Source of the DNA: an uncultured virus (IMG/VR IMGVR_UViG_3300011240_000038)
Lineage: Duplodnaviria; Heunggongvirae; Uroviricota; Caudoviricetes
Virus record (IMG/VR): IMGVR_UViG_3300011240_000038
Length of the DNA stretch: 20,000 bases
Reading direction: 5' to 3' (one strand)
Within the stretch, counting starts at the first letter, position 1; each line of letters begins with the position of its first letter. The notes below the pieces were generated by a model. The model made no database searches, was not told where the DNA came from, and saw only the letters and a list, made by a program, of their open reading frames with translations. Position numbers and translations under genes: made by a program. Positions 1-13,936 of the stretch are shown in pieces.

Positions 1-59
1 AATCTAGATGTATCTGGTCCCATAGTGCCAGTTACATTTAACTTTCTTTTTTTCTTCAT
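1..59 (-). CDS. 5' end of a hypothetical protein running off the window (MKKKRKLNVTGTMGPDTSR...)
   Basis: ATG at 59 on the minus strand preceded by SD GAGGTGAT (reverse complement of 65-72); frame open to the window edge. Confidence 0.6.
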   Translation of the reverse strand, partial: MKKKRKLNVTGTMGPDTSR

Positions 60-83
60 TATAAATCACCTCATTTGAAAATA

Positions 84-111
84 TTGACAAAGTGTGAATA
101 TATTATACAAT
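84..111 (+). promoter_or_regulatory. SigA-type promoter of the lipoprotein gene
   Basis: TTGACA (84-89), 16-nt spacer, TACAAT (106-111). Confidence 0.6.
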
Positions 112-144
112 GTAAATATAATAGAAAAGCATGGGGGTTATTTA

Positions 145-606
145 ATGAAGAAAATATTTAGTTTATTATTATGTGCAATAATGATATTAGGTCTAGTTGG
201 GTGTGGGGATAATGATATGAGCTCAGAAAAAAAGCAATTAATAAAGCAATTTGAAGAGGGTGTTGAAGATTATAAAACCGCATTGGAATATTTTAAAAAA
301 GATGATCATGAGAATAAAGGCAAATATTTAGATTTAGCTTTTGAAAAATTTAATGATATACTCAATATAACTAATGATGGTGATTTAACAGTACTTGATA
401 CTGGTTCAGAAAACTATAAATATTATTATGAACACTACTATTCAGGTAAACTTACAGAGATATATTCAAGCAATACAGATTTATATTTGGCTGATTACTA
501 TATGAGTTATGAACAACTTTTAGAAGAATGGAACAAAAATATAGATAATATGAATAATATTATTAAGGAATACAAAGAGACGAACAATAATGAAACTTCA
601 AAATAG
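145..606 (+). CDS. Putative lipoprotein (prophage moron-like)
   Basis: Start moved to ATG145 after GGGGG SD; MKKIFSLLLCAIMILGLVGC is a type II signal peptide with lipobox LVGC; own promoter and terminator. Confidence 0.8.
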   Translation: MKKIFSLLLCAIMILGLVGCGDNDMSSEKKQLIKQFEEGVEDYKTALEYFKKDDHENKGKYLDLAFEKFNDILNITNDGDLTVLDTGSENYKYYYEHYYSGKLTEIYSSNTDLYLADYYMSYEQLLEEWNKNIDNMNNIIKEYKETNNNETSK

Positions 607-608
607 TT

Positions 609-633
609 GACTAGGGAAACCTAGTCTTTTTTT
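609..633 (+). terminator. Rho-independent terminator
   Basis: GACTAGG-GAAA-CCTAGTC perfect stem followed by a T7 run. Confidence 0.85.
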
Positions 634-637
634 ATTT

Positions 638-665
638 GAAGGAAATTTATGGGATATGTAGAATA
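638..665 (+). promoter_or_regulatory. SigH-like promoter of the HTH gene
   Basis: GAAGGAAAT (638-646) and TAGAATA (659-665) fit the SigH AGGA...GAAT consensus and spacing. Confidence 0.55.
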
Positions 666-686
666 GTATATCGTAGAGGTGGTGTT

Positions 687-887
687 ATGGAAGTTAAAAA
701 TAAACTTAAAGAGATACGTATGCGAGAGTATATGATGGATTCAGGAGAGTTTGCTAAATTTTTAGGAGTTCCAAGAAGTACATATTCACAATGGGAAACT
801 GGAAATAATAATCCTACATTAAATAAGGCTTTTGAAATTGCTGAAAAGTTAGAAAGAAAATTAGTGGATATATGGTATTCAGAGTAA
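687..887 (+). CDS. XRE/Cro-family helix-turn-helix transcriptional regulator (66 aa)
   Basis: ATG687 after GAGGTGG SD; NKLKEIR...EFAKFLGVPRSTYSQWETGNNNPTL is a typical HTH_3 pattern. Confidence 0.85.
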   Translation: MEVKNKLKEIRMREYMMDSGEFAKFLGVPRSTYSQWETGNNNPTLNKAFEIAEKLERKLVDIWYSE

Positions 888-915
888 TATCATATATCCT
901 TATTTTTTATACATA

Positions 916-1009
916 AAATTCTAAAAAAATAAAATAAATTCTAAAATATAGGAAACATTTTAAAAAAACAAGCATATAAATATATTAAGAAGTTAGAAAA
1001 ATTTAGAAA
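916..1009. repeat. TTCTAA repeat cluster upstream of parM (candidate parC/operator)
   Basis: AAATTCTAAAA at 916-926 and 936-946; inverted TTAGAAA copies at 993-999 and 1003-1009. Confidence 0.4.
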
Positions 1010-1028
1010 TATTTATAAGGAGATTGAT

Positions 1029-1895
1029 ATGATTCTAGGAATTGATGTAGGAAATTATAGTGTAAAAGTTAATCCAAACATTAACGTAAAAAGTTTAGTG
1101 AGTACAGAAGAAAACATTTTAGGATCAGGTATAGTTCTAGAATATGATAATAAAAAGTTTGTTATAGGTGAGGGGAGCTTTGAAACTGAACTAAATAAGA
1201 GTAGTAAGGAGAACTTTCTACCAATGTTATACACAGGCATTGCATTAGCAAGTGAAGATGTGTTTAATCAAGTTGTTTGTGGATTGCCAATTAACCAATA
1301 CAAGGCGAATAAAGATGCACTTGAGAGAATGGTTAATGAAAACAAGATGAAAACAGTAAAACTAAATGGTAAGTCTAGAGAAATAGTAATTTCTGAGTTT
1401 AAAGTTTATCCAGAAGGAATAGGAGCTTATTACAGTTTATCTACTAATGAAGATGTAATTATAGTTGATATAGGTGGAAGAACTACTGATATAGCGTATA
1501 TATGTGATAAAAAGCACCACACGAGCTCTACTGTGGCAGTAGGAACACTTAATATATATAAATCTATATGTGATAGGTTAAACGGTGAGCATAGCTTAGA
1601 TTTGGACTTACAAATGGTAGATAGAATTATTCAAAAGGCTTCACTTAAAGTGGATAATAAAGAAGTTGATTTAAGATTTATAACGGAAATTCTTAAAGAA
1701 AATTTTATGAAAATTAAACAGGATTTAGATTTCAAGTTCCCAGCTAGAACTGAAAGAATAATATTAGTTGGTGGTGGAGCTAAGTTGTTTAGCAGGGCAT
1801 TTGCTAAAAGATATTCTAACTTTGAAATAGCAGATAATCCTTTATATGCTAATGCGATTGGATTTAAAAAGGTAGGTGAAAGTTTATGGCAATAA
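1029..1895 (+). CDS. parM: ParM/StbA-family actin-like partition ATPase
   Basis: Actin-fold motifs ILGIDVGNYSVK, VVCGLP, YPEG, IVDIGGRTTD, LVGGGA, ANAIG; SD AAGGAG. Confidence 0.9.
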   Translation: MILGIDVGNYSVKVNPNINVKSLVSTEENILGSGIVLEYDNKKFVIGEGSFETELNKSSKENFLPMLYTGIALASEDVFNQVVCGLPINQYKANKDALERMVNENKMKTVKLNGKSREIVISEFKVYPEGIGAYYSLSTNEDVIIVDIGGRTTDIAYICDKKHHTSSTVAVGTLNIYKSICDRLNGEHSLDLDLQMVDRIIQKASLKVDNKEVDLRFITEILKENFMKIKQDLDFKFPARTERIILVGGGAKLFSRAFAKRYSNFEIADNPLYANAIGFKKVGESLWQ

Positions 1896-2089
1896 AACCA
1901 ATAACCATAAGTTTTAAAAATAATGCAGAAGATAAAGAATTGAATTTATGGATAAATAGCCATAGCAATTACAGTGGATTCATAAAAGACTTATTAAGAA
2001 AGGCTATGCATGAGGAAAGAAAAGAAGGTGGAGAAGTTATAAAAAAGCAGGTTGGATCTAGCAATTTGATAGATTTAGGGGATTTTTAA
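1886..2089 (+). CDS. Small ParR-like (ribbon-helix-helix) adaptor
   Basis: Overlaps the parM stop; N-terminal strand-helix-helix pattern ITISFK...ELNLWI...SGFIKDLLRKAM; acidic flexible tail; position typical of type II partition operons. Confidence 0.6.
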   Translation: MAIKPITISFKNNAEDKELNLWINSHSNYSGFIKDLLRKAMHEERKEGGEVIKKQVGSSNLIDLGDF

Positions 2090-2091
2090 AT

Positions 2092-2129
2092 AAAAAATAG
2101 CCTAAATCCAAATGGGTAGACTTAGGCTA
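2092..2129 (-). terminator. Rho-independent terminator, minus-strand orientation
   Basis: TAGCCTAAATC (2098-2108) pairs with GACTTAGGCTA (2119-2129); A-tract 2092-2097 becomes the U-tract on the minus strand, where the single mismatch is a G-U pair. Confidence 0.7.
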
Positions 2130-2177
2130 GGAAGCTTAAGCATGCACTCCAGCGTCTACTCTACGCTTTCGCTTCAT
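2092..2177 (-). ncRNA. Candidate ~85-nt structured small RNA
   Basis: GC-richer island with nested stems (GAAGC 2131-2135/GCTTC 2171-2175; AGCGT 2151-2155/ACGCT 2163-2167) between a SigE-like promoter and a terminator; no credible ORF. Confidence 0.4.
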
Positions 2178-2182
2178 ACTTC

Positions 2183-2212
2183 AGCGTATGCTATAAATTT
2201 TGAAATGATAAC
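2183..2212 (-). promoter_or_regulatory. SigE-like (mother-cell) promoter
   Basis: Minus strand reads GTTATC-N16-CATACGCT, matching the ATa-N16-CATAcaaT consensus. Confidence 0.5.
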
Positions 2213-2254
2213 TATTTTAGCTCCAAATATTCAAAGTTTACAAAATGTTAAAAA

Positions 2255-2329
2255 TTAGAAAATAACTGCAGCACAAACAACCGCATAACAAATAAGGTAA
2301 CCACATGTAATTGCAAATGGAATAGTCAT
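2255..2329 (-). CDS. 24-aa hydrophobic peptide MTIPFAITCGYLICYAVVCAAVIF (not in ORF track)
   Basis: Strong SD GGAGGTGT (reverse complement of 2335-2342) before ATG2329; almost entirely hydrophobic. Confidence 0.6.
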   Translation of the reverse strand: MTIPFAITCGYLICYAVVCAAVIF

Positions 2330-2406
2330 ATAAAACACCTCCGATAAAATTTATTAAGTATTAATATCATTAACAAGATTCAATTAATTATTCAGGAGGA
2401 TCTATT

Positions 2407-2811
2407 ATGTTAAATAAAAAAAAGGTTTATTCGATTCAAGAATTTATTCAATACTTGGATGAAAAAAACATTAAAAAGACAGATAAACAAGTAGGGATAT
2501 TATTGAAAGATAGAAAATTTAAGCCTATATTAGTTGCAGTAACAGGAAATTTATTACACTATAGTGTAGCGTTAGCGGATGCATCTTCAGCTACGGGGAA
2601 AATTAGTGTTGCTGGTAATACCATATTTGGTATATGTAAAGAAGCTGCATTCTGGATATGTTTGATTATGTGTGCTATAGAAATAGTAAAAGCATTGATG
2701 AATGGGGATACGAAGAGTGTTAGTAAAGTTATAGCAAAATATATAGTAGCATATGGAGCTATATATCTTTTACCATGGTCATTCAATCTTATAAAAGATA
2801 TATTTGGTTAG
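2407..2811 (+). CDS. Small membrane protein, TrbC/VirB2 pilin-like
   Basis: SD CAGGAGGA; basic leader, ALA-D processing-like site, then two hydrophobic helices separated by a short charged loop (NGDTKSVSK). Confidence 0.6.
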   Translation: MLNKKKVYSIQEFIQYLDEKNIKKTDKQVGILLKDRKFKPILVAVTGNLLHYSVALADASSATGKISVAGNTIFGICKEAAFWICLIMCAIEIVKALMNGDTKSVSKVIAKYIVAYGAIYLLPWSFNLIKDIFG

Positions 2812-2823
2812 GAGGTATGAACT

Positions 2824-3120
2824 ATGATTAGTTACACTATTTCTGAATTTTTAGCAGTAATTGAACCAGCGGATAAAATTTCTTATATGGATGCAATAAA
2901 AAATATAGGGACTTTTTTCAGTTATCTTTTACACCCAAGTAAAATATTATTATTGTTATGGAATTGGACATTTGAATTATCGTATTTTATATGTTTACTT
3001 ATTGCTTTATATGGTTTTTTTATGGTGATGACAGGGGATAAAAGTAAAAGAAAATATTTAAGTGGTTCTCTAATAACTTATTTTTTTATTAATATTATTA
3101 ACTATATAATTATGGGGTGA
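2824..3120 (+). CDS. Small membrane protein with 2-3 TM segments
   Basis: SD AGGAGGT; hydrophobic segments flanking TGDKSKRKY; tightly coupled between the pilin-like gene and the ATPase. Confidence 0.7.
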   Translation: MISYTISEFLAVIEPADKISYMDAIKNIGTFFSYLLHPSKILLLLWNWTFELSYFICLLIALYGFFMVMTGDKSKRKYLSGSLITYFFINIINYIIMG

Positions 3121-3124
3121 TTAC

Positions 3125-5455
3125 ATGAAATTTAAATCATTGAAACTAAGTGATTATTTTGAAATAAAAAAACCTACGTATATTTATTTGAAACTTACAC
3201 CAGATAGTTCTATAAGAAACTATAATAGCAGTGCTATAGCTAAATCTATATCTCTTATGTATAAAAGCATATTCCAACACATAAAAAATGAAAATAAAAA
3301 AATAATATTTGAGACTAATTGTAAGGTTTCATATTTTATAAATATAACTAAAAAAGAAGTTACATTTTACTTCATAGTACCAAACTTTTATAAAGATTTA
3401 ATTAAAGAAAAAATACGTAACACTTGGAAACGAATAACTATAGATGAAGTAGATGCTATCAAAGAATTTAAAGGTGATTCAATAAAATATCAACTATATT
3501 ATAAAAAAGAGGATGCATTATCTTTAGCTGTAGATAAAAAGAATAATGATCCATTAAATTCTTTATTAAATGTAATAGAAATAATTAAGGAAGATGAAAG
3601 AATAGGAATATTTTATAATTTCATTCCAACATTTCAAGGTGATTGGAGAGGTAGTTATAAGAAAACTATATCTAAATTAGAGAGTGGTAAACCAGTTGAA
3701 AGAGATATCACTGGTTCAATTATAATTAGGAATATAGTTAGTTTTATATCAGATATATTGAAGGAAGCATTAGGCGTTATATTAGGAAATGAAGCAAAAG
3801 AAAATTCTAATTTAAGTTTTCTAGAAGCTGCAATGGGTATAGTAAAGAACTTTAATTTATCTAATGCTACAGAGAAGAAAAAGAATGCATTAATATTAAA
3901 GGGTCAGATAATAGTAGAAAGCGAATCAAAAGATAGGGTTAGAGCAACTACAAATGCTATTACAGTATGCCAAAGTTTTAAGGCTATAGAAGAAGATAAT
4001 GAGCTTAAATATAAAGAAATTAAAAATAAAATGAAGAATGTATGGTATACTACAGACTTCAAGATTAAGGGTGTAGAAGAAAGTAAATTTTCCATAGATG
4101 AATGTAGTAATTTCATTCAGTTACCAGGTAGAGAACTACAAGATAGATTTGGAGGAATTAAAAAAATTAATACACTTGAAACTGAAGTACCAGATGAACT
4201 TCAACAAGGTACAAAATGTATAGGGCATAATACTTATAAGGGAAATGTGACAAAAACTTATTTAACTACAGATAAAGATTATAAGAATTTAGCATTAGTA
4301 CCTATAGGGCCTACAAGAAGCGGTAAAACTACACTATTAGGAAATCTTGCAGCAGATAGTGTTAAATGTGGAGAATGTGTAATAGTTTTAGATTATATAG
4401 AGAATTGTGGATTGAGTGAAGATATTAAAGCTATGATACCCAAAGAGAATGTTTTTGAAGTTAATTTGTATGATACTAACAATTTACAAGGTCTTGGATA
4501 TAATGAAGCTATAGTTGATACAGATGATGTATTTAGACAATATGAGAGTGCTAAAAAACAAGCATCACAAGTGCTTGCACTTATTAATAGTATTAATATC
4601 AGTAATAGTGAATTTACTCCAAGAATGGAGCGATATTTAACAAGTGCTTGTCTAGTATCTTTTATACAAAAGAAGTCACTGAGAGATGTAATAAAATTAT
4701 TGCAGGAATGGCAGTTTAGAGAAGATATAATAAATACCATATCTAAGAACCAAAATGATAACTTGGAAGAATATATAGGGTACCTTAAAGAGTTGGACGA
4801 ATGGTCAAAGGCTACTAAAGATAATCCTTCTGAAAAAATAGGGACTAAAACAAGTTTGATAAGTGGAGTAGTGGATAGGTTTAATAAATTGAAATCTAAT
4901 ACTTATATGGAACTTATGCTTAAGAAAGATATTACGGATAATTTTAATCTTCTGGAAGAGATGGAGAAAAATCAAGTGATATTTATAAAAATGCCTGAAG
5001 TTATGTTTGGTACTGCAGAAGAAAGAGATATAATGACAACCTATTGGTTGACTAAAATTTGGATGGCAGCTCAAGCGAGAGCTTGGAAAATTACTGATAG
5101 ATATAAAAGAAAAACAGTTACAGTAATTGGTGATGAAATAGCACAATTAAAATCAGCAGAAGAATATATTGGTAATAGATTAGATCAAACCGCAAAGTTT
5201 GGAATTAAATTTGTGTTAAGTACTATGTATATTAATCAATTAAGAATTAGAGAAAAACTTAAGACTGCTAATACTAGTTATATGTTTATATCCGGTAGTG
5301 ATAAATCTAATTTTAAAGAATTGAAAGATGAATTTGAACATAGTGGATATACTTTAGAAGATATGTTAAATCTAAAAAGATATCATTCATTGAATTACAT
5401 TAAGCATTCAGAAGGATATTGGGCTGGCATTACAGAATTACCTAAACCTAATTAA
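3125..5455 (+). CDS. Large P-loop ATPase of the VirB4/VirD4(TraG)/HerA-FtsK superfamily
   Basis: Walker A GPTRSGKT (4307-4330), VIVLD strand, helical insertion, distal Walker B VTVIGDE, then TAKFG and LSTMYINQL where the family has RKxG and xTQ motifs. Confidence 0.75.
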   Translation: MKFKSLKLSDYFEIKKPTYIYLKLTPDSSIRNYNSSAIAKSISLMYKSIFQHIKNENKKIIFETNCKVSYFINITKKEVTFYFIVPNFYKDLIKEKIRNTWKRITIDEVDAIKEFKGDSIKYQLYYKKEDALSLAVDKKNNDPLNSLLNVIEIIKEDERIGIFYNFIPTFQGDWRGSYKKTISKLESGKPVERDITGSIIIRNIVSFISDILKEALGVILGNEAKENSNLSFLEAAMGIVKNFNLSNATEKKKNALILKGQIIVESESKDRVRATTNAITVCQSFKAIEEDNELKYKEIKNKMKNVWYTTDFKIKGVEESKFSIDECSNFIQLPGRELQDRFGGIKKINTLETEVPDELQQGTKCIGHNTYKGNVTKTYLTTDKDYKNLALVPIGPTRSGKTTLLGNLAADSVKCGECVIVLDYIENCGLSEDIKAMIPKENVFEVNLYDTNNLQGLGYNEAIVDTDDVFRQYESAKKQASQVLALINSINISNSEFTPRMERYLTSACLVSFIQKKSLRDVIKLLQEWQFREDIINTISKNQNDNLEEYIGYLKELDEWSKATKDNPSEKIGTKTSLISGVVDRFNKLKSNTYMELMLKKDITDNFNLLEEMEKNQVIFIKMPEVMFGTAEERDIMTTYWLTKIWMAAQARAWKITDRYKRKTVTVIGDEIAQLKSAEEYIGNRLDQTAKFGIKFVLSTMYINQLRIREKLKTANTSYMFISGSDKSNFKELKDEFEHSGYTLEDMLNLKRYHSLNYIKHSEGYWAGITELPKPN

Positions 5456-5472
5456 TATGCAACAATATTAGG

Positions 5473-5492
5473 AGCCAAGTACATGCATGGCT
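5473..5492. other. Putative hybrid attachment site (attR/attL), crossover near CA 5482-5483
   Basis: AGCCA-AGTA-CA-TGCA-TGGCT: imperfect inverted repeat centred on CA, where the host frame starts to look family-like (HAWLYNVNRIEP). Confidence 0.6.
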
Positions 5493-6507
5493 TTACAATG
5501 TAAATAGAATAGAGCCAGCGGTAAGAAGACACATTGAAAAAATGGGAATAAAAGTTAGATTTGTAAGCCGTGTAGTAGATGTAAATATGGAAGGGATTAA
5601 TATAAAGGGAATTTATCTTAGTAATGGTGAATATATAGAAGCAGATGCCTTTGTAGAAACTACTGGTTCTACAGGACCTATGGGAAATTGCTTACGCTAT
5701 GGAAATGGTTGTTCTATGTGTATTTTAAGATGCCCAGCCTTTGGACCAAGAGTAAGTATTAGTTATAGAGCAGGTATAGAAGATATAAAAGGTGAAAGAC
5801 AGGAAGATGTATTTGGTGCTTTCAGTGGATCATGCAAGTTGGAGAAGGATAGCTTATCAGAGAAAATAGTAAAACAGTTAGATGAAACAGGAGTAGTAGT
5901 ATTAAAGGTTCCACCAGAAGATATAAATACGGATAAGTTAAAGCAAAAGGTTTGTCAACAATATGCACTAAAGGAATTTGCGGAAAATATAGTACTTTTA
6001 GATACTGGTCATGCTAAGTTAATGACTTCTTATTATCCCTTAGATAAACTTAGAAAAATTGAAGGTCTTGAAGAGGCAAAATTTGTAGATCCATATGCAG
6101 GTGGTAAAGGAAACTCCATTAGATATTTATCAGTTGCACCAAGAAGTAATCAGATGAAAGTTGTAGGACTTGATAATTTATTCTGTGCTGGAGAAAAAAG
6201 TGGGCTTTTTGTAGGACATACAGAAGCTATAACAACTGGTTCATTAGCAGGACATAATGCTGTTAGAAATGAGCTTGGAATGCCACTTTTAACCCTTCCA
6301 AGAAATTTAGCTACTGGAGACATTATAGCTTATGCTAATGAAAAGGTTCAAACTACAGAAGGTAGAAGAAATAGATATACCTTTGCAGGAGCCGAGTACT
6401 TTAAGAGAATGAAGGATAATGAACTTTATATTTTAGAGTCAGAAGAAATTCAAAAAAAGGTGAGGAAGTTGGAGTTAGATAATATTTTTAATCAAAAATT
6501 AGTATAG
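5482..6507 (+). pseudogene. 3' portion of a GidA/MnmG-like FAD-dependent oxidoreductase gene split by the element
   Basis: Frame continues upstream of ATG5542 as HAWLYNVNRIEPAVRRHIEK; no SD before 5542; N-terminal GxGxxG Rossmann motif absent while ADAFVETTG and NLFCAGE...GHTEAITTGSLAGHNA are present. Confidence 0.75.
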
Positions 6508-6544
6508 AATACATCAAATTTAGAATATAAATCTATTTAACAGT

Positions 6545-6584
6545 AACCATCAAGATATATGATTTAGTATATCCTGATGGTTTT
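6545..6584. terminator. Terminator hairpin between convergent genes
   Basis: AACCATCAAGATATA (6545-6559) and TATATCCTGATGGTT (6568-6582), 14/15 complementary, T-tract follows. Confidence 0.75.
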
Positions 6585-6604
6585 ATTGATGAATTTTCAA
6601 TAAT

Positions 6605-7033
6605 TTATTTATATAAAAATTTATGTTTTAAAAATTTTATATCTATATTTTCGCAGTTAGCAATAGTGTTTATAGATAAACCTTCGTAATTAAGTATTAT
6701 TGACTTATCAATCAACAGCTCAGCTGCAAATTGATCAGCTTGCATTTCATATTTACCTTTAACTTGAGTAGTTTTACTTTCTAAAAAAAGTATATTTAGA
6801 TTACTATGCAATATAGCGTGGCCAAGTTCATGAGCACAAGTAAATAACATATCGATTTCACTTAATCTAATATTTAAGTGAATTATTTTATTTTTTGGAG
6901 CATATTGATAAAATCCATGAATAGACCCTAAATCTTCGTACATAACATTTATTCCAAGAGCATCACATAATTCTCGAGGATCATTAGTTTTATATTTTTT
7001 TACTAAGTTATTTACTAAATTTGAAATTTCCAA
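6605..7033 (-). CDS. ImmA/IrrE-family Zn metallopeptidase (anti-repressor)
   Basis: AHELGH (HExxH) and EMQADQFAAELL motifs; probable TTG start at 7033 after a G-rich SD; directly downstream of the repressor. Confidence 0.9.
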   Translation of the reverse strand: MEISNLVNNLVKKYKTNDPRELCDALGINVMYEDLGSIHGFYQYAPKNKIIHLNIRLSEIDMLFTCAHELGHAILHSNLNILFLESKTTQVKGKYEMQADQFAAELLIDKSIILNYEGLSINTIANCENIDIKFLKHKFLYK

Positions 7034-7086
7034 AATTATATTCCCCCCCAAAAACATCATCAAATTTTACGAAATAAAGTTTGAAA

Positions 7087-7530
7087 TTATTTTTTATATT
7101 TTTTAGGGGTATATTTTATCTTATTCATTTTCTTAGCATACTCAATTCCATTTTGAATAGCAGATTTTAATAATTCCCAGTCTTCATCATTAATAGGATT
7201 ACCGGAAAGCATAAGTCCTTCTTGATTTTCTAAAGACTCCAAGGTACTGTTAAAAATTTTCTCAATATCTTTTTTATCTTTGGGATTTAATTCTAAATCA
7301 TCAAAAGTTGATTTTTTAGGTGATGATATATCACTTCTACCAAGTAAGTAGTCTACAGATACGGAAAAAAAATCGGCAATTCTTTGAAGCAATTCATTTT
7401 CTGGTATTGCTTTATCATTCTCATATTTAGAAATTGAGCTATTATCTATTAAAAGAATATCTGCTAATGATTTTTGTGTTAATCCATGTTTTTTTCGAAG
7501 TTCTTTTAACCTAATACCCAGTGTATTCAT
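7087..7530 (-). CDS. ImmR/CI-like XRE-family repressor
   Basis: LGIRLKELRKKHGLTQKSLA...ISKYEN...IADFFSVSVDYLLGRSD; SD AGGAGGTG; C-terminal KYTPKKY typical of ImmA-cleaved Firmicute phage repressors. Confidence 0.9.
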   Translation of the reverse strand: MNTLGIRLKELRKKHGLTQKSLADILLIDNSSISKYENDKAIPENELLQRIADFFSVSVDYLLGRSDISSPKKSTFDDLELNPKDKKDIEKIFNSTLESLENQEGLMLSGNPINDEDWELLKSAIQNGIEYAKKMNKIKYTPKKYKK

Positions 7531-7553
7531 ATATTTACACCTCCTATAATTAT

Positions 7554-7581
7554 ATTATAACCATATTTGAAGTAAAATCAA
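7554..7581 (-). promoter_or_regulatory. Leftward promoter for repressor-immA
   Basis: Minus strand TTGATT-N16-TATAAT, overlapped by the first operator. Confidence 0.55.
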
Positions 7582-7849
7582 TATAAGTTGAAATAAAATC
7601 AAAAAAAATTCAATATGACTTGACAATTTGAATTTAATTCAATAAAATCAAAATATGAATATTGAATTAAATTCAAATATGGGGGTTGTATAAGAAATGA
7701 AGTATATTTAGAGAAATAACTCAATAATAGTAAATCACGTTATAATTAGAGTGCAGGCTGAAATATGTCTTTAACAAATGAAATATTATATTGAATTTAA
7801 ATCAATATAATATTTCAACAACAAATAATAAAAATTGAATTAAATTCAA
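7567..7849. promoter_or_regulatory. Six 15-bp palindromic operators TTGAA-N5-WTCAA
   Basis: Copies at 7567-7581, 7588-7602, 7628-7642, 7662-7676, 7791-7805, 7835-7849. Confidence 0.85.
7620..7648 (+). promoter_or_regulatory. Rightward (lytic) SigA promoter
   Basis: TTGACA (7620-7625)-N17-TAAAAT (7643-7648), with an operator filling the spacer. Confidence 0.8.
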
Positions 7850-7860
7850 GGGGAATCGGT

Positions 7861-8295
7861 ATGAATATGAATAAAAAAATTGAAACTATGCTTTATAACT
7901 TTAATCAAACGAAAGCAGAAATTAAAAATATAAAACTAGATATAGAGTTATTAGAAAATGAATATGATGACGGAATTGGTGTAAATTACGTGGAGAAGAC
8001 AGGAAAAACTAATAAAATTACTTCAACAGTGGAAAACATGATAATAAGAAAAGAGGCTCAAATTAACAGATTAAATTATGCTATAAAAGTTAAAGAAGCT
8101 GAAATAAAAAAGATTGAAAATGCTCTAGAAATTCTTACAGATAGAGAAAGAAGTATTATTGAAATGAGATATTTTCAGAAGGAAAGTAATAGAAATATTT
8201 CAGCAAAGCTTTATATTACAGAAGAATATGTATCAGCAATAAAGTCAAAAGCTATTAAATCTCTTGCAAATATATTCTTTATAAATTCTTTATAA
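7861..8295 (+). CDS. ArpU/RinA-family phage late transcriptional activator
   Basis: N-terminal coiled region, TNKITSTVE, C-terminal sigma-region-4-like HTH (IENALEILTDRERSIIEMRYF...ISAKLYITEEYVSAIKSKAIKSLA). Confidence 0.85.
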   Translation: MNMNKKIETMLYNFNQTKAEIKNIKLDIELLENEYDDGIGVNYVEKTGKTNKITSTVENMIIRKEAQINRLNYAIKVKEAEIKKIENALEILTDRERSIIEMRYFQKESNRNISAKLYITEEYVSAIKSKAIKSLANIFFINSL

Positions 8296-8355
8296 ATTCT
8301 TTATAAATTTCTTTTAAACTCTCTTTATATAATCGGGTTAAAGCGGTGCTAGAAT
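8275..8355 (+). promoter_or_regulatory. Late promoter: tandem 11-bp activator-binding repeats plus extended -10
   Basis: TTCTTTATAAA x3 (8275-8307) plus two degenerate copies to ~8329; TGcTAGAAT at 8347-8355; no good -35. Confidence 0.65.
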
Positions 8356-8772
8356 AATATCATCGCAGTGGTGATAAGTTATTAAAAGTTGAGTCTTAAG
8401 ATAATAAATTAGTTTTAAATTTTAAAATAAGAATAATAAAGTTTAGATTACTAATTTATCACTATGAGTTATGGTTAAAAAGTTTTATTAACAAATAAGA
8501 AATGGAGCTAAAGGAAAGGGGTGATAACAATGCGGTGACTTTCATATTAAGATTTATAAATTCTTTGAAATACATTAGGATAATTCAAAAAGAAAGAATA
8601 GCCTCTAATTTAAAGTAAATAAAAATATATATTTAAATTTTATTAGCTAAATAGGATCTAGATAAACCATTTCAATTTTAAAAACTAGTAACCAAAGTCT
8701 TAAACTGTGACAATGATTTTAATAAATAGCTAATAGATATTAAAAATATATAAATCAGTAGAGGAGGTAGAA

Positions 8773-9213
8773 ATGAATATAGTAGAAAGTATCAAAGAAT
8801 ATATAGGAACCTGTCCTTATCTAGCAAATATTAATGATGGTATTAATATTAATTACTTAGGTGAAAATACAGTATCCTATATGATAGAAGAACTTCCTAG
8901 AGAACAAATTTTAAAAAAGTATATTGATGGAACTAGTCTTAGACAATACTGTTTCATGTTTGTCAGTAGGGAAGTATGCGGACAAGATGTAGTACAAAAT
9001 ATAGCTAATAGTAAATTCTATGAAAACTTTGCTAAGTGGCTAGAACTTCAATCAGAGCTTAATAATCTACCAGTACTAGATAGTGGGAGAGTGGCACAAA
9101 AAATAGAAGCATTAACAAGTGGTTATGTTTTCGAAAAAAATCTAGATAAAGCACAATATAAAATAGAATGTAGATTGGTATATTACCAAGAAGGAGGAAA
9201 AAATAATGAGTAG
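8773..9213 (+). CDS. Phage tail terminator/completion protein (minor structural)
   Basis: SD GAGGAGGT; first gene of the tail operon, upstream of the tail tube; KKYIDG...RQY.F and AQYKIECRLVYYQE resemble A118-like minor structural proteins. Confidence 0.6.
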   Translation: MNIVESIKEYIGTCPYLANINDGININYLGENTVSYMIEELPREQILKKYIDGTSLRQYCFMFVSREVCGQDVVQNIANSKFYENFAKWLELQSELNNLPVLDSGRVAQKIEALTSGYVFEKNLDKAQYKIECRLVYYQEGGKNNE

Positions 9214-9700
9214 AGAATCAATACAAAGACATCAAATAGCAGATTATATAAATATAGGTGGATCAACAGGTGTAGAAAAATATGAATTAATGGGAGCTGG
9301 ATTTAATACATTAGATGAAAATCCAGCAGCTCAACTTGATACTAAAGTTTATATTAACGATAAATCATCGTCAACTACAATTAAGTCATACCAAACACAA
9401 TTCCCATTCACATCAGATTTAATTAAAAGTGAAGGGGCAGTAATGGCATTATACAATGTTGGAAGAAATCATCTTACAGGTGCAGATGCACAATTTGACT
9501 ATGTTAAAGTTGAACTATTTCAACCAATAGAAGGAAGTGAGAATACTTATAAGGCTAGAAAATTTATAGTAAGTTGTGAAGTTGCTGGATTAGCTGGAGC
9601 AGGCGGAGAAACTATTGTGGTATCAGGAAACTTAAATGCAGTAGGAGATTTTATAGAAGGTACATTCAATACTGCAACAAAAACATTTACTGCAATTTAG
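9206..9700 (+). CDS. Major tail (tube) protein, siphovirus type
   Basis: 164 aa; YELMGAGFNTLDENPAAQ...YIND...TIKSYQTQFPF and GTFNTATKTFTA; position before chaperones and tape measure. Confidence 0.75.
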   Translation: MSRESIQRHQIADYINIGGSTGVEKYELMGAGFNTLDENPAAQLDTKVYINDKSSSTTIKSYQTQFPFTSDLIKSEGAVMALYNVGRNHLTGADAQFDYVKVELFQPIEGSENTYKARKFIVSCEVAGLAGAGGETIVVSGNLNAVGDFIEGTFNTATKTFTAI

Positions 9701-9715
9701 TAGGAGGAATATTTA

Positions 9716-10057
9716 ATGAATATTAATGGAATTGAGCTAGAATTAGATATATTTGATGCCGATGTTGCAGAAAAATATGATAAAGCAATAAAAAAAGTAA
9801 TGAATATAGAAGAAGAAACAAAGGGTATGTCAATTGGAGAAGGGATAAGAACTCAGTGCAAAGCCATCTTTAAAGTTTTTGATGAACTTTTTGGACAAGG
9901 TACTCATGAAAGAGTATTTGGAGATAAAGTTAACTTACTTGAATGTTTAAAGGCTTTTGAGGCTCTAATAACAGGCATAAATGAGAAAAATAAAGAAATT
10001 GAACTCATTGCTAATAAGTATTCTTCTAATAGAATTCAAAGACGTTCTAAAAAATAA
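9716..10057 (+). CDS. Tail assembly chaperone
   Basis: 113-aa acidic helical protein between tail tube and Gp15-like gene; C-terminal NRIQRR. Confidence 0.65.
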   Translation: MNINGIELELDIFDADVAEKYDKAIKKVMNIEEETKGMSIGEGIRTQCKAIFKVFDELFGQGTHERVFGDKVNLLECLKAFEALITGINEKNKEIELIANKYSSNRIQRRSKK

Positions 10058-10653
10058 TGAATATTTTAATTGATGTTTTACCTCGAAAAGTTGAAATAGA
10101 TAATAGAGAATATAAGATTAATTATGATTTTCGTACATCCATTTTGTTTGAGATAATGATTCAGGATGATGAGCTTGATGATAAAGAAAAGATATATAAT
10201 GCTCTTCTTCTATATTATCCAGTAATACCAGATAATTTAGAAGAAGCAATTAAACAAATTCTTTGGTTTTATAGAGGTGGAAAAGATATTAATGAAGGAA
10301 GTAGTGGAGTATCTATGGGTAAGAGTACAAGAGCATATAGTTTTGAATATGACGATGACTATATTTACTCCGCTTTTCTAACCCAATATGACATAGACCT
10401 TCAGGATATAGAAGATTTACATTGGTGGAAATTTAAAGCCATGTTTAGAGCTTTAAAGGAAGACAATGAAATAGTTAAGATTATGGGATATAGATCTATG
10501 ACTATAAATACCAATATGAGCAAAGAACAAAAGGATTTTTATAGTAATATGAAGAGAATTTATGCTATTCCAATGAGTAAATCTAAAAAACAAAAGGTAA
10601 CAGAAATTGAAAATGCTCTTATGGAAAATGGAGACTTAAGGGGAATACTTTGA
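10057..10653 (+). CDS. Bacteriophage Gp15-family tail assembly protein
   Basis: INYDFR, YSFEYDDDYIYSAFLTQYDIDL, LHWWKFKAMF, IMGYR motifs of the A118 gp15-like family. Confidence 0.85.
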   Translation: MNILIDVLPRKVEIDNREYKINYDFRTSILFEIMIQDDELDDKEKIYNALLLYYPVIPDNLEEAIKQILWFYRGGKDINEGSSGVSMGKSTRAYSFEYDDDYIYSAFLTQYDIDLQDIEDLHWWKFKAMFRALKEDNEIVKIMGYRSMTINTNMSKEQKDFYSNMKRIYAIPMSKSKKQKVTEIENALMENGDLRGIL

Positions 10654-10675
10654 TTTTAGTATTCTAACTATAAAA

Positions 10676-10717
10676 ACTAATAAAAAGTGCTTATAAAACT
10701 AGGCACTTTTTATTAGT
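10676..10717. terminator. Intra-operon terminator/attenuator hairpin
   Basis: Perfect 15-bp inverted repeat ACTAATAAAAAGTGC (10676-10690)/GCACTTTTTATTAGT (10703-10717). Confidence 0.7.
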
Positions 10718-10734
10718 AAAGGTAGGTGATTTGC

Positions 10735-10872
10735 ATAGTAAAAGTAAAATGTCCATTTTGTAATAAATTATTAATTAAAGCTGATTACATCAAAGGAGAA
10801 ATAAAATGTAGTAGATGTAAGAGGTTAATAAATATAGAAATAGAAAAGCCAGAGCTTAGAGCCACACCCTAG
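10735..10872 (+). CDS. Mu Com-like zinc-finger protein (~45 aa, not in ORF track)
   Basis: VKVKCPFCNKLLIKADYIKGEIKCSRCKRLINIEIEKPELRATP* with CxxC-x15-CxxC; SD AGGTAGGTGA; no in-frame ATG, probable ATA start at 10735. Confidence 0.75.
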   Translation: MVKVKCPFCNKLLIKADYIKGEIKCSRCKRLINIEIEKPELRATP

Positions 10873-10914
10873 AGTAGTGAGCCGTAGCCTGCTTTATAAA
10901 AGGCAGGTGATATT

Positions 10915-13086
10915 ATGTCAAATACAAGTATAAATGAAGAGATAAATTTAACATTAAAAAGTATATTAGAAAATTTAGAATCACAAGGTGAAGAAGCTAA
11001 AGAGAAAAGTACAAAAATCATTTCTAAATTAGTTACTGGAGCAGGAAAAGAAATAATTAAGGCTAACTCCGTTGCTATGGGTAAAATTGGACAAGGGTTA
11101 AACAAAGGGTTTTCTAAGATAAATTTCTTTGAGTCTATAGCGAAAACTTTTGAAGAAAAAGTAGGAGGGCTTTCAGAAAAAGTAAGAAGAACTTTTAATA
11201 CACTAAAAACTGATATTAAGCTTTGTACAATATTAGTAACAGATGTAATGAAAGAAACAAAGTGGTTTAAAATGGCATCTTCAACTATAGATAGTGCTAA
11301 AAAGGCTTTTGAAAGAATAGGCTCTGAAGTAGGAATATCAGGAAAAGGAGCTTTTCTAAAGATTGCTACTGGGGTCGGTAAAGAAGGAGCAAGTGCGCTT
11401 ATAAATATATCATCTAAAGTTGGAAAGGTAGCATCAACGGCTTTTAGTGGTACTATTAAAGCTATTGGAAAAGTTGGATCTTATGGAATAAAGGCTGGAG
11501 AACAGTTTGCACAAGGAGTATCTAAAATAGCTGATTTTAGTCAAAATGCAGGGAAAGAAATAGAAGACTTAAATGTATCAGCAGCAACTATGGAAGATGG
11601 ATTAGGCCGTGAAGTTACTATATTTAAAAGCTCACTTATGAGTCTTGGAAAAGATATGGGTGATAGCATAGATGGCCCATTAAAAGAAATAACAGCTTCA
11701 GCAACAGGGATGATTGGACAGCTATCTTCAGCATTCCAAGAAGGTGGATTTGAAGGACTTGCAGGTAGTGTTGGAGATGTATTTACTCAAGCAATTACAG
11801 GCATAGCTGACAAGGCTCCTGAATTTATGAATATTGCAGTTTTGATTATAGAATCATTAATAGCTGGATTCCAAGAAAATATGCCGTTAATAGCAGAATC
11901 ATCAATACAGATAATAATGCAGCTAGCTGAGGGTATTATTACCATATTACCTAGTATATTTGAGCTAGGAATTACTTTAATATCTGAATTGTTATTAGGA
12001 TTAGTAGAAGCTATTCCACAGTTAATAACTTTAGCACAAGAATCTATTATAAGTATTATGACATTGATAACGGAAAATTTGCCATTAATTATGGAAAGTG
12101 GATTTCAAATTGTTTTAGCACTTATAAATGGAATATCTGAAATGTTGCCAGAGTTAATACCGCTAGTAATACAAGCCATAACAACTATTATTACATCTAT
12201 AGGAGAAAATTTACCACTTATACTTCAGAGTGGTATAGATATTCTTGTGGCACTTATTAATGGAATAGCAGCAATGTTGCCAGAGTTAATTCCAATGGCT
12301 GTACAAGCTTTGTTAAATATAGTAGATACCCTCATAGTAAATCTTCCACAAGTTATAGATGCAGCTATTAAAATAATAATGGCTTTAATACAAGGAATAA
12401 TTGGAGCATTACCACAATTAATTATGGAAATACCAAAGATAATAAATGGAATAGTATTAGCAGTCATAAATAATTTGCCAGCAATTATAAGTGCGGCAAT
12501 TCAAATAATAATGGCTTTAATACAAGGACTAATTATAGCAATTCCTACGTTAATAGGTAATATACCCACTATAATAGCTGCAATTATAGGAGCTTTTGCT
12601 AAAGCTGATTGGAAACAAATTGGTACAAACTGTTTGGAGGGCTTAAAAAATGGTCTTATAGCAGGGGTTAGTGCAGTAGTTGATACAGTAAGAAATGTAG
12701 CCAGTAGTATAGCAAATGGATTTAAAGACTTTTTTGGAATCCATTCACCATCTACTCTATTTAGAGATATGATAGGTAAAAACCTTGTTAAAGGTATCGG
12801 TTTAGGTATTGATATAGAAACTCCAAATCTTGAAAAAGAAATAGGTGGTAATCTAGAGGATCTAACAAGAAAAATGAGAGCTACAATTGATTTTGAAACT
12901 ACTAAGGTTTCTGGCAATATGGCAATGAACTCTAGTTATAGAGCTGCTATGGAAACTCCATATTCCATAGTAAATAATAATGATAACGGTGTAAATGAAA
13001 TTATTAATATATACCAACCAGTAAAATCACCATCTGAAGTTGCAAGAGCAATAAAAATACAAAGAAAGGAGCTTGCATTTGGATAA
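10915..13086 (+). CDS. Tail tape measure protein (723 aa)
   Basis: Ala/Gly/Ile-rich helical protein with ~11/22-residue Pro-punctuated repeats and FFGIHSPS motif; canonical position. Confidence 0.9.
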   Translation: MSNTSINEEINLTLKSILENLESQGEEAKEKSTKIISKLVTGAGKEIIKANSVAMGKIGQGLNKGFSKINFFESIAKTFEEKVGGLSEKVRRTFNTLKTDIKLCTILVTDVMKETKWFKMASSTIDSAKKAFERIGSEVGISGKGAFLKIATGVGKEGASALINISSKVGKVASTAFSGTIKAIGKVGSYGIKAGEQFAQGVSKIADFSQNAGKEIEDLNVSAATMEDGLGREVTIFKSSLMSLGKDMGDSIDGPLKEITASATGMIGQLSSAFQEGGFEGLAGSVGDVFTQAITGIADKAPEFMNIAVLIIESLIAGFQENMPLIAESSIQIIMQLAEGIITILPSIFELGITLISELLLGLVEAIPQLITLAQESIISIMTLITENLPLIMESGFQIVLALINGISEMLPELIPLVIQAITTIITSIGENLPLILQSGIDILVALINGIAAMLPELIPMAVQALLNIVDTLIVNLPQVIDAAIKIIMALIQGIIGALPQLIMEIPKIINGIVLAVINNLPAIISAAIQIIMALIQGLIIAIPTLIGNIPTIIAAIIGAFAKADWKQIGTNCLEGLKNGLIAGVSAVVDTVRNVASSIANGFKDFFGIHSPSTLFRDMIGKNLVKGIGLGIDIETPNLEKEIGGNLEDLTRKMRATIDFETTKVSGNMAMNSSYRAAMETPYSIVNNNDNGVNEIINIYQPVKSPSEVARAIKIQRKELAFG

Positions 13087-13933
13087 GTATATAGATATTA
13101 AATTAGAATGTAATGGCAAGATTTTAGAGATTGGCAAGGATAAATTATACAAATTAATAAATATAGAAGGAATCTCTAGCTCAGAATATAGTGTAGATAT
13201 TGTAAATAATGCACAATTTGATGGTGGGACTGTTAAAAGTAAAAGAGTAGAATCAAGACTTATAACTATTACAGCAGAATATCCATCAACAGAAGATACA
13301 GAAACTAGAAGACAAAACCTAATTAGATTTTTTAATCCTTATTTAACTGGAAAGTTATATGTAAACTACTCTGGAGTTAAGAGGGTAATTAATTATGAGG
13401 TAGCAGGATTTAAAGATAGTAGAGAGAATTTATATGATCCACTTAAATTTATTATTAATCTGATATGTCCTAATCCATTTTTTAAAGATGAGAGAGAGTT
13501 TAGTAAAAATATGGCTGGTAAAATTAATAGTATTACTGTACCTTTCACTATTCCGGCAAGTGGTATGATTATGTCGGCTAAAGTATTGAGACAAGAGGCT
13601 ACAATAATTAATAATGGAGATAAAGATACAGGGCTGATTATCTCATTTATAGCAAAAGGTGAGGTGAGCAACCCAAAGATAGAAAACTTAACTACAGGAA
13701 AATTTTTAAGGATAGTAGTGGACTTGATGCCTGGTGATATTCTCACAATTAATACGAATAAAGGGAATAAGATGATAGAACTAAATGGGAAAAATATTTC
13801 TCAAAAAATGGATCGTTCTAGCTCTTTTATTGACATGCAGGTAGGAGAAAATATATTAAAATATAGTGCTGATAAAGGATATACAAATCTTAATGTTTAT
13901 CCAAAGTGGACAGCTGAATTCTTTGGGGTGTAG
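13079..13933 (+). CDS. Distal tail protein (Dit)
   Basis: Follows tape measure; LICPNPFF, INNGDKDTG, GDILTINT, GENILKY patterns; TTG13079 is 7 nt after SD GAAAGGAG. Confidence 0.8.
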   Translation: MDKYIDIKLECNGKILEIGKDKLYKLINIEGISSSEYSVDIVNNAQFDGGTVKSKRVESRLITITAEYPSTEDTETRRQNLIRFFNPYLTGKLYVNYSGVKRVINYEVAGFKDSRENLYDPLKFIINLICPNPFFKDEREFSKNMAGKINSITVPFTIPASGMIMSAKVLRQEATIINNGDKDTGLIISFIAKGEVSNPKIENLTTGKFLRIVVDLMPGDILTINTNKGNKMIELNGKNISQKMDRSSSFIDMQVGENILKYSADKGYTNLNVYPKWTAEFFGV

Positions 13934-13936
13934 GAC

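Follow-up and report, generated by a model that had tools for sequence, protein, structure and literature searches.

The 20,000-nucleotide stretch of DNA analysed here (the window) carries an FAD-dependent oxidoreductase gene that begins in the middle of its reading frame, directly beyond phage DNA, which raises the question of what separated the gene from its 5' end and whether the two halves are ever joined again. On balance, the reading we favour is that position 5482 is the attR of a ~58-kb siphovirus, integrated at codon 85 by a large serine recombinase (LSR), and that the gene is reassembled most likely in the sporulation mother cell.

The extent of the damage is defined by the frame at 5452-6507. 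Its upstream limit is the TAA at 5449-5451; read from the sequence, the frame passes from LICNNIRSQV into HAWLYNVNRIEPAVRRHIEK and a methionine at 5542, and it remains free of stops until TAG/TAA at 6505-6507. BLASTP against the intact 425-aa protein of C. subterminale (P0002) gives a gapless match of 97% identity over residues 85-425, so the first 84 codons, with the GGGWSG FAD-binding end, are absent from the window gene. What is retained at 5482..6507 (plus strand) is the 3' part, 341 codons and a stop codon (residues 85-425 of 425), with a match to the Pfam GIDA C-terminal family (E 6e-23); the product reaches no curated family cut-off. DNA similarity to the intact genes of C. subterminale and C. 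sulfidigenes starts at window 5481/5482. The first-pass annotation had described a truncated frame behind the stop at 5449-5451, a missing FAD-binding N-terminus and a stop-free remainder, all of which the sequence and the BLASTP match to P0002 bear out. It had also allowed that homologues might simply start near M5542, but the great majority of the relatives among the 120 matches listed by a protein search are 425 aa long.

The break lies within an imperfect inverted repeat, AGCCAAGTAC / ATGCATGGCT, at 5473..5492 (plus strand), which is read as the attR core, a hybrid of a phage half-site and a gene half-site. In this 20-mer, AGCCAAGTACATGCATGGCT, the outer five bases pair (AGCCA/TGGCT) and the centre falls between 5482 and 5483. 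The meaning of so short a repeat comes from the rebuilt attP sites of related elements rather than from the repeat alone, these being 50-bp palindromes centred on the same CA of the His85 codon. In the rebuilt attP of C. tunisiense and of G266 the arms are 28 nt apart and spacer bases 14-15 are CA, and the CA at 5482..5483 (plus strand), the first two bases of the His85 codon, is most likely the crossover point. The outer arm of the phage half-site (P arm), ATGCAACAATAT at 5457..5468 (plus strand), lies 14 nt left of this dinucleotide and aligns with ATGCATCAATAC in the C. tunisiense attR and with (T)CGCAATAC in eight other attR junctions at the same codon (site 1); these arms pair with GTATTGATGCAT or GTATTGCGA in the corresponding attL. 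Identity between sites is short, the shared cores of the rebuilt related sites measuring 4-11 bp, and in the window only the P half is visible. Such arms and spacing support the window break as an LSR att junction, and the earlier proposal of a serine-recombinase junction centred on CA 5482-5483 agrees with the attP palindrome centres of the relatives.

Most of the phage lies outside the window. Window positions 66-20000 are 99.1% identical to positions 52330-72254 of provirus record G001, and the overlap with the phage block of that record (1-57,750) is only its last 5.4 kb. The block is a complete siphovirus of ~57.7 kb with a 531-aa LSR (phrog_95, E 3e-116; PF07508) at the end far from the window junction, and it also encodes a repressor/Cro pair, RecE/RecT, DnaD/DnaC, terminase, portal, capsid, tail and lysis genes. 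With all modules in one block, and taken with the window junction, it is an integrated temperate tailed phage. Its right arm, at 1..5481 of the window (no strand assigned), is recognised from Pfam and PHROGs scans and from the G001 match as an accessory module behind the lysis genes, with ORFs for a signal-peptide protein (94-606), an HTH protein (636-887) and a ParM/Alp-like actin (1029-1895), a further ORF (1886-2089), two membrane ORFs (2407-2811 and 2824-3120) and a 776-aa P-loop protein, phrog_5156 (3125-5455). In G001 the genes of this module come after those for XhlA, holin and endolysin. A conjugative element or plasmid was considered for 1-5455 on account of the ParM-like gene and the 776-aa P-loop protein, and was dropped because these genes follow the lysis cassette of a complete siphovirus in G001. 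The record itself is composite, joining the prophage, the host gene fragment and a separate tail-only cluster; records of this kind call for caution with completeness estimates and host-gene calls.

The missing 5' half had been expected beside a serine recombinase. This expectation holds in C. tunisiense, where the order is residues 1-87, a 533-aa LSR, 23 kb, and residues 82-425, representing a 23-kb relative element at the same codon as the window phage. Its attL and attR have ACATGC in common, and in its rebuilt attP two 12-bp arms form a perfect inverted repeat around the central CA. For the window's own lineage the attL was not found: G001 lacks the 5' half and ends at the LSR stop codon, an exact 39-mer of the LSR 3' end has no match in the viral and metagenome contigs, and the predicted attL pattern, which would carry the arm ATATTGTTGCAT, has no match in contig pattern scans. 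Six viral contigs with 95-97% identical LSRs all stop at or before the LSR stop codon. Another 20 viral-contig loci, with LSRs of ~47% identity, were tried as users of the same gene and rejected; no piece of the oxidoreductase gene lies within 2.5 kb of them, which indicates that they use another target.

The uninterrupted form of the window's gene is found in nearly identical DNA. A metagenome contig (X7) and an RNA-library contig (X15) show 0 differences to the window from 5481 onward, and upstream of 5481 both read ...GATTTTCCAGGACATGA, the uninterrupted gene, while the window-type junction is also assembled in the independent runs X2 and X3. Near-identical strains of this lineage differ in whether they carry the phage insertion, as seen in public runs compared as assembled contigs, which cannot reveal minority junctions. 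Rejoining in codon register, as the first-pass annotation had proposed, gives stop-free ORFs of 423-426 aa in 12 of the 12 genomes anchored on both sides (four loci without a right-hand anchor are left out of this count), one restored gene being assembled from four pieces, and the alleles in X7 and X15 are the intact counterpart of the window's own gene.

Insertion into this gene is a recurrent event. In a Clostridiaceae sample the gene is split in at least 75 of the 341 genomes that carry it, or about 1 in 5 sampled species, at codons ~85, ~261 and/or ~332, and the break base is the same as the window's in more than 20 other species. These genomes hold 91 insertions, with all three sites occupied in two of them. 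Site 2, at the His261-Ala262 codons (CATGC; 6010..6016, plus strand), is empty in the window and has cores CATGCAA or ACATGC in five fetched loci; site 3, at the Glu332-Ala333 codons (GAAGCT; 6223..6228, plus strand), is likewise empty, with GAAGC(T) in the same codon register in seven fetched loci. The isolate run X3 has, besides the site-1 junction as in the window, a break at 6010-6016 whose loose ends show site-2 attP arms. Each insertion in the fetched loci has one LSR (22/22), located within 133 nt of a junction in 19 cases and 1-1.4 kb off or undetermined in the other three. Mapped on the LSR tree, the sites require 3 label changes, whereas shuffled labels need 8.3 on average and get down to 3 in 0 of 200 shuffles; judging by this tree, each of the three sites has its own LSR group. 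The G266 LSR has the domains PF00239, PF07508 and PF13408 (Resolvase, Recombinase and zinc-ribbon), and the YSRKS catalytic motif is invariant in 16 of 16 aligned LSRs, so that by domains and attP geometry the elements qualify as a large serine recombinase integration system.

Many of the elements are small. A single contig holds the whole insertion in 55 cases, and 19 of these are mini-elements of at most 7 kb that contain an LSR and a small ORF. In 15 elements the LSR is adjoined by a member of a family of 48-60-aa ORFs, of which G001 has a weaker relative, and the small ORF beside the LSR has no family match. Excision by an LSR normally requires a directionality factor, and this ORF of ~50 aa may be one.

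Divergence between hosts indicates that the split gene is still in use. In four species with a common site-1 mini-element, host gene dS is 0.15-0.24 and dN/dS is 0.01-0.06; such strong purifying selection means that the split gene must still be assembled somewhere. In three of these species the LSR dS of 0.20-0.21 equals that of the host gene, indicating that element and gene diverged together, and in the fourth the LSR dS of 0.46-0.53 lies above that of its host gene, indicating that some elements spread horizontally.

The sequence of events that would account for these observations starts with an LSR integrating the phage at the CA of codon 85. In the lysogen the gene, missing its FAD-binding end, can give no full protein, and precise excision by the LSR would place the gene back in frame. 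The conserved oxidoreductase gene is a family-wide landing pad for three LSR groups at three fixed sites, many of the residents being stripped to the LSR and a ~50-aa ORF. Reassembly would most likely take place during sporulation in the mother cell, which does not pass on its genome, as with skin/sigK, SPbeta/spsM and gin/gerE.

The genomic context offers hints of such timing. The oxidoreductase is gene 2 of a two-gene operon, after a PyrK-like electron-transfer subunit, and the operon neighbours are ytfJ and a dacB-like gene. Of 42 species, 30 have the motif TA[AG]CA-N15/16-[CA]ATAnnnT[AG] ahead of the operon, whereas it turns up in 1 of 840 shuffled sequences and 17 of 4992 random windows; the 42 upstream regions are related by descent, and the motifs are short and AT-rich. 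The motif agrees with the B. subtilis σK consensus KCACM / GCATANNNTA given in the text available from PMC3416734 and with the C. difficile SpoIIID box KRTAACARK in that available from PMC5025042. Upstream of the small ORFs a σK/SpoIIID-like motif is present in 8 of 15 regions and absent from 7, with controls at 3% or below. The small ORF beside the LSR of the window-type phage has a σA-like TTGAAA-N17-TATAAT without a σK-like motif. The literature searched contains no paper on the oxidoreductase gene as a sporulation gene or phage target, and the main texts of PMC4191935, PMC10747680 and PMC5027557 hold nothing relevant under 'oxidoreductase'. Recurrence at three sites, the existence of mini-elements, the purifying selection acting on split genes and promoter motifs of σK type together make sporulation-coupled excision of the split gene plausible from sequence evidence, the case being weakest for the window's own phage.

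Comparison with known systems shows a likeness to elements that are excised from sporulation genes. SPbeta/spsM of B. subtilis (LSR SprA with directionality factor SprB), according to portions of PMC4191935 and PMC5499854, is likewise a full-size, active-looking LSR prophage inside a coding frame, with precise excision rebuilding the gene and degenerate descendants at the same site in related species. Unlike spsM, the target here encodes an uncharacterised FAD oxidoreductase and shares its operon with the gene for a PyrK-like subunit; unlike in SPbeta, the candidate directionality factor of the window phage has no visible σE/σK-type promoter, and the LSR matches SprA-type enzymes at family level only. 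The 3-7-kb mini-elements share the plan of gin/gerE in Bacillus cereus ATCC 10987 (LSR GirC with the 42-aa GirX), as outlined in part of PMC5595907: no phage structural genes, one LSR with an adjoining very small ORF, insertion into a coding frame, and a short core that forms part of an imperfect inverted repeat. Unlike them, gin has three recombinase genes in that account; gene, genus and LSR lineage also differ, and the function of the small ORF is here a putative one.

Skin/sigK (SpoIVCA in B. subtilis; CD1231 with directionality factor CD1234 in C. difficile) is, in the relevant part of PMC5025042, similarly a prophage-derived LSR element splitting a gene, a mother-cell gene in the case of skin. 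Excision of the C. difficile skin is timed there by a small directionality factor under σE/SpoIIID control, and the SpoIIID box TGTAACAAT described in the same part resembles the GTAACA box upstream here. Skin occupies one site in sigK, in contrast to the three sites in the oxidoreductase gene, which is no known sporulation gene. The clostridial element yin in yabG of Clostridium botulinum V73 is also prophage-like and lies in a gene. According to part of PMC10747680 it carries a recombinase, and both a small directionality factor and a σK promoter are proposed for it; it is reported there as unique to one strain, whereas the elements here occur in at least 75 species-level genomes and at three sites.

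The main competitor of sporulation-timed reassembly is ordinary lysogeny, a serious possibility that we rate below it, in which the phage integrates into a conserved stretch of a dispensable gene, lysogens simply have that gene switched off, and excision occurs only at phage induction, without developmental use. The window's 58-kb phage in particular fits this description, since the prophage appears complete and self-sufficient, its small ORF and LSR stand behind a σA-like promoter, and near-identical strains are polymorphic for the insertion; an intact paralogue of the oxidoreductase (~60%), present in several genomes, could cover the function. Many LSR phages occupy genes without a known switch. 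Yet ordinary lysogeny leaves unexplained why degenerate elements of 3-7 kb have stayed in the same places with the split gene at dN/dS 0.01-0.06 over a dS of ~0.2, why genes in three or four pieces are stop-free, and why three LSR groups converge on one gene.

An improbable variant retains a regulated switch and places it outside sporulation, with excision in part of the cells answering to a signal such as stationary phase or redox or oxygen stress, much as with the comK phage of Listeria or the mutL islands of streptococci. It is compatible with a target that is a redox enzyme pair of unassigned role, and yin of C. botulinum is reported, in part of PMC10747680, to excise in a growth-phase-dependent manner and at all time points. 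But the operon promoter, which is conserved, resembles σK/SpoIIID sites, as do half of the small-ORF promoters, and mini-elements unable to re-infect would be lost from dividing cells, yet they co-diverge with their hosts. That there was no insertion, the 3' fragment being what a deletion or rearrangement left to decay, or else an artefact of assembly, can be put aside as very improbable: the 5' half of the window's own lineage was not found in the scans, but the same break base recurs in other species, the element side carries a conserved phage half-site, the junction was assembled independently in X2 and X3, and the fragment is stop-free and 97% identical to intact genes.

If reassembly in the mother cell holds, the oxidoreductase gene would be a new and very frequently used target among genes rebuilt by programmed excision in spore formers, and an uncharacterised two-subunit redox enzyme would likely have a late-sporulation function in Clostridium. 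A wider proposal, which we advance tentatively and consider slightly short of probable, is that the PyrK-like/FAD-oxidoreductase operon is an unrecognised mother-cell operon whose gene 2 is assembled, in about one fifth of Clostridiaceae species, through one to three independent excisions, each with its own LSR and small factor under σE/σK-SpoIIID control. This would be a multi-lock developmental DNA rearrangement, to our knowledge so far known only for heterocyst nif genes, and temperate phages like the window's would ride the same sites. The natural LSR/attB/attP sets within this one 1.3-kb gene fall into three families and come with candidate directionality factors; they are useful as orthogonal recombination tools.

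Among isolated phages, Clostridium phages HM T and CP51 have no site-1-type attP beside their integrases in a simple and weak arm-motif scan. The isolated phage with the nearest integrase is Terrisporobacter phage TPELB_ph1 (PP197244.1), whose LSR aligns with 94% of the G001 LSR at 50.7% identity. Directly after its integrase gene lies TCGCAATACT-N32-AGTATTGCGA, the arm motif of site-1 attP sites, and the spacer holds GGCCATGAGCA, like GGTCATGAACA of the oxidoreductase gene. Its host belongs to another family, and its site is centred ~6 bp further upstream, on the first His codon of GHEH.

The frame of the oxidoreductase gene at window 5452-6507 opens with 10 unrelated residues, LICNNIRSQV, continues as HAWLYNV... 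and stops at 6505-6507, its upstream end being set by a TAA at 5449-5451. Relatives retrieved by protein search are mostly 425 aa long, named FAD-dependent oxidoreductase and from Clostridium, which speaks against a natural start near M5542. The best match, an intact C. subterminale protein (P0002), is 97% identical without gaps over its residues 85-425 only; therefore 84 N-terminal codons are missing from the window gene, the GGGWSG dinucleotide-binding end among them. DNA similarity to the intact C. subterminale and C. sulfidigenes genes starts at 5481/5482, with none before, and the broken frame and lost FAD-binding N-terminus proposed in the first-pass annotation are thus borne out. The inverted-repeat 20-mer it had placed at the junction lies at 5473-5492, centred between 5482 and 5483.

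Of 80 loci holding a relative of the gene, that of C. tunisiense TJ matches residues 85-425 and no others. The order in its genome is residues 1-87, 40 nt, an oppositely oriented 533-aa large serine recombinase (LSR), about 23 kb, and residues 82-425 on the gene-piece strand, and the LSR shares 57% identity with that of G001, a near-identical public provirus record. The C. tunisiense attL and attR have ACATGC in common, and joining them yields GAT TTT CCT GGA CAC GAA CAT GCC TGG (DFPGHEHAW), in frame, as had been anticipated for a rejoined gene. In the reconstructed attP, two perfect 12-bp arms, ATGCATCAATAC and GTATTGATGCAT, stand 28 nt apart, with CA as the central two bases of the spacer; a matching arm, ATGCAACAATAT, occupies window 5457-5468, 14 nt before CA 5482-5483. 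The attP symmetry in relatives and the matching window arm support CA 5482-5483 as the inferred crossover, the position first suggested. The missing 5' half, expected beside a serine recombinase, is present in C. tunisiense and was not found in G001 because that record is trimmed at the LSR gene.

G001 comprises 72,254 bp, the last 19.9 kb being 99.1% identical to window 66-20000. Its start coincides exactly with the stop codon of a minus-strand 531-aa LSR, which matches PF07508 and phrog_95 (E 3e-116), and the record lacks attL because it is cut at that codon. The window junction corresponds to G001 ~57,750. Between the LSR and this point lie lysogeny and replication genes (repressor/Cro pair, RecE/RecT, DnaD/DnaC, anti-repressor, SSB), packaging and head genes (small and large terminase, portal, scaffold, major capsid), tail genes (tail tube, 1106-aa tape measure, 1536-aa tail fibre) and lysis genes (XhlA, holin, endolysin). 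The final, accessory module before the junction, window 1-5455, encodes an HTH protein, a ParM-like actin, two membrane ORFs and a 776-aa P-loop protein. Judged by this gene content, the inserted element is a complete-looking temperate siphovirus of about 57.7 kb. A conjugative-element reading of the left part of the window is ruled out by the siphovirus gene set in G001.

As a record, G001 is a composite of the prophage, a 3' fragment of the host gene and a separate tail-only cluster, and its 100% completeness estimate covers that composite. Behind the lysis genes, at window 1029-5455, the ParM/Alp-like actin is accompanied by a 67-aa partner ORF, a partition-like pair that is odd in an integrated phage; the two membrane ORFs and the 776-aa P-loop protein (phrog_5156, no Pfam family) share this region. 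Additionally, an 805-aa ORF after the endolysin gene of G001 (L094:7370-9787) matches the SIR2-like family PF13289 weakly (E 6e-5, narrowly short of the cut-off) and may be a phage-carried defence gene.

The gene was surveyed in a sample of 401 genomes from the family of C. tunisiense. It is present in 341 of 388 genomes scored, and LSRs near the G001 enzyme (E 1e-140 or better) occur in 46 of 383; genomes with the closest LSRs are largely those with a weak best match to the oxidoreductase gene. All 96 genomes with a best E-value weaker than 1e-195 were re-searched and the rows sorted by hand: the gene is split at fixed positions in 75, a lower bound because genomes with an intact copy beside a split one were left out of the re-search, intact but divergent in 4, and ambiguous (contig ends or lone fragments) in 17. 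The 75 split genomes hold 91 insertions, at codon ~85 (site 1, 21 genomes), codon ~261 (site 2, 42 genomes) and codon ~332 (site 3, 28 genomes), with two sites filled in 12 genomes and all three in two (G055, G285); the gene is an insertion hot spot. Fifty-five insertions lie on a single contig and span about 3 to 80 kb by coordinates, 19 of them 7 kb or less. One genome (G053:C1:2691828-2800422) has a 5' piece, residues 1-264, and behind it, spread over 108 kb, four differing 3' pieces (residues ~246-425, 62-64% identity to P0002), a pattern suggestive of stacked site-2 elements that each left behind a separate copy of the gene end. In another (L124, G109:C51:152000-161500), the 3' piece matches from residue 60 and overlaps the 5' piece (1-86) by ~26 codons, a stretch that the element or its junction seems to carry in duplicate.

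Twenty stretches were fetched from 18 split genomes and all their junctions aligned to the intact gene in codon register. Cores of attL and attR share their columns in every fetched locus: CATGC at site 1, with attP arms TCGCAATAC / GTATTGCGA; CATGCAA at site 2, with arms GTTGCAGTTT / AAACTGCAAC; and GAAGCT at site 3, with arms close to TTGCAAATTG and its complement. The 22 insertions in these loci have one LSR each (520-597 aa), which lies 133 nt or less from a junction in 19; the distance is 1.4 kb in L126 and 1.05 kb in L129, and in L128 the gene piece nearest the LSR falls outside the fetched stretch. Identity to the G001 enzyme is 48-56% at site 1, 41-47% at site 3 and 40-42% at site 2. 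On the maximum-likelihood LSR tree the site label needs 3 changes (minimum 2), against a shuffled mean of 8.3, with 3 reached in 0/200 shuffles, and the site-2 LSRs form a single clade (100/100 support). Joining in register gave stop-free ORFs of 423-426 aa in 12/12 genomes with both sides anchored, a count outside which four further loci without an anchor fall; among the restored ORFs are one joined from four pieces (G055) and one from three (G184). The insertion is established, as is its LSR geometry, and for the family of elements reversible restoration has good support.

Site-1 elements occur in two layouts: in one, which the window type follows, the LSR gene adjoins attL and runs opposite to the oxidoreductase gene, and in the other it adjoins attR and runs in the same direction (L090, L123, L130, L131 and L133 versus L115-L122 and L124). 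The attP arms and centre CA are identical in both and the layouts are intermixed in the LSR tree, by which attP polarity relative to the integrase gene has evidently flipped during evolution.

Contigs of four public runs, in which minority excision products are invisible, were compared with window 4500-6500. Two of them, one from a freshwater metagenome (X7) and one from an RNA library (X15), show zero differences to the window from 5481 on and continue upstream as ...CCACAAAAATATAGATTTTCCAGGACATGA, the uninterrupted gene, and an isolate run (X2) has the junction of the window. The insertion is polymorphic in nature. A further isolate, a close relative of the window's organism (X3), has the site-1 prophage junction and a second break at 6010-6016, with loose ends GTTGCAGTTT... 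and ...AAATTGCAAC, and by these ends it carries a second element, at site 2.

Mini-elements of at most 7 kb contain the LSR, a ~48-60-aa ORF beside it, mostly divergent from it, and up to a few odd cargo genes (Rad52-like relic, GNAT, holin-like protein, choline-binding repeats). The small ORFs align as one loose family, whose C-terminal part is common to a 51-aa ORF upstream of the G001 LSR, and have no Pfam or NCBIfam family match. In position and size they resemble GirX, CD1234 and SprB, which PMC5595907, PMC5025042 and PMC4191935 describe as small directionality factors belonging to gin, skin and SPbeta, and they are candidate directionality factors. Four species-level genomes (G266, G255, G281, G248) have a site-1 mini-element with the same gene content. 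Their rejoined host genes show dS of 0.15-0.24 and dN/dS of 0.01-0.06. The LSR dS in three of them is 0.20-0.21 (dN/dS 0.16-0.20), a depth equal to that of the host gene, which fits co-descent of mini-element and host; the LSR of the fourth has diverged further (dS 0.46-0.53). A gene dead since before the species split would not hold dN/dS near 0.03, so the simplest reading is that the split gene is still assembled and used. Among the computed evidence, this host-gene dN/dS speaks most strongly for a working switch, and it bears on the mini-elements, not directly on the window's phage.

Sporulation is the leading guess for when restoration might occur. A 331-aa ORF passing NCBIfam equivalog NF004470 (sulfide/dihydroorotate dehydrogenase-like FAD/NAD-binding protein) overlaps at its end with the oxidoreductase gene; in C. 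subterminale the pair follows scpA, scpB, ytfJ and a dacB-like carboxypeptidase gene, and a terminator lies ahead of the pair. The motif TA[AG]CA-N15/16-[CA]ATAnnnT[AG], sought in the 100 nt upstream of the operon, occurs in 30 of 42 species, 1/840 dinucleotide shuffles and 17/4992 random windows of the same loci; it is short and AT-rich and the 42 regions are related by descent, both of which count against sporulation timing. It agrees with the σK consensus of B. subtilis, KCACM / GCATANNNTA, listed in PMC3416734, and its GTAACA part fits the C. difficile SpoIIID box KRTAACARK as given in PMC5025042. Eight of 15 small-ORF upstream regions have the operon motif or AC-N16/17-[CA]ATAnnnTA, the strict form CATAnnnTA occurring in 4 of 15 versus 0.5% of shuffles. 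Also against such timing, a σA-like TTGAAA-N17-TATAAT precedes the small ORF of the window-type phage, and the enzyme reaches no curated family cut-off and has no known sporulation role, literature searches having found nothing on it.

The finding is of the same kind as SPbeta/spsM, skin/sigK, gin/gerE and yin/yabG, and differs from them in the target gene, in having three sites, every one used by a separate LSR group, and in the large proportion of species affected. The nearest isolated-phage integrase, from Terrisporobacter phage TPELB_ph1 (PP197244.1), has 50.7% identity. Right after its gene, L136:3100-3190 reads TCGCAATACT-N32-AGTATTGCGA, the arm motif of site 1, with a spacer holding GGCCATGAGCA, which resembles the GHEH codons of the oxidoreductase gene. 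This stretch is likely an attP whose target, in the homologue of the gene from a different bacterial family, lies ~6 bp upstream of site 1.

Immediately behind the oxidoreductase gene, window 6625-19155 holds a 12.5-kb cluster with genes for an ImmA/IrrE-like protease, an XRE repressor and a sigma-70 region-4 regulator, after which come those for tail completion, tape measure, Dit, minor tail and fibre and lastly XhlA, holin and GH25 lysin. Terminase, portal and capsid genes are absent from the cluster, which looks like a non-contractile tailocin, in that case presumably monocin-like, or a prophage remnant. The cluster is an indel, missing from C. sulfidigenes and present in C. subterminale at 93.6% identity.
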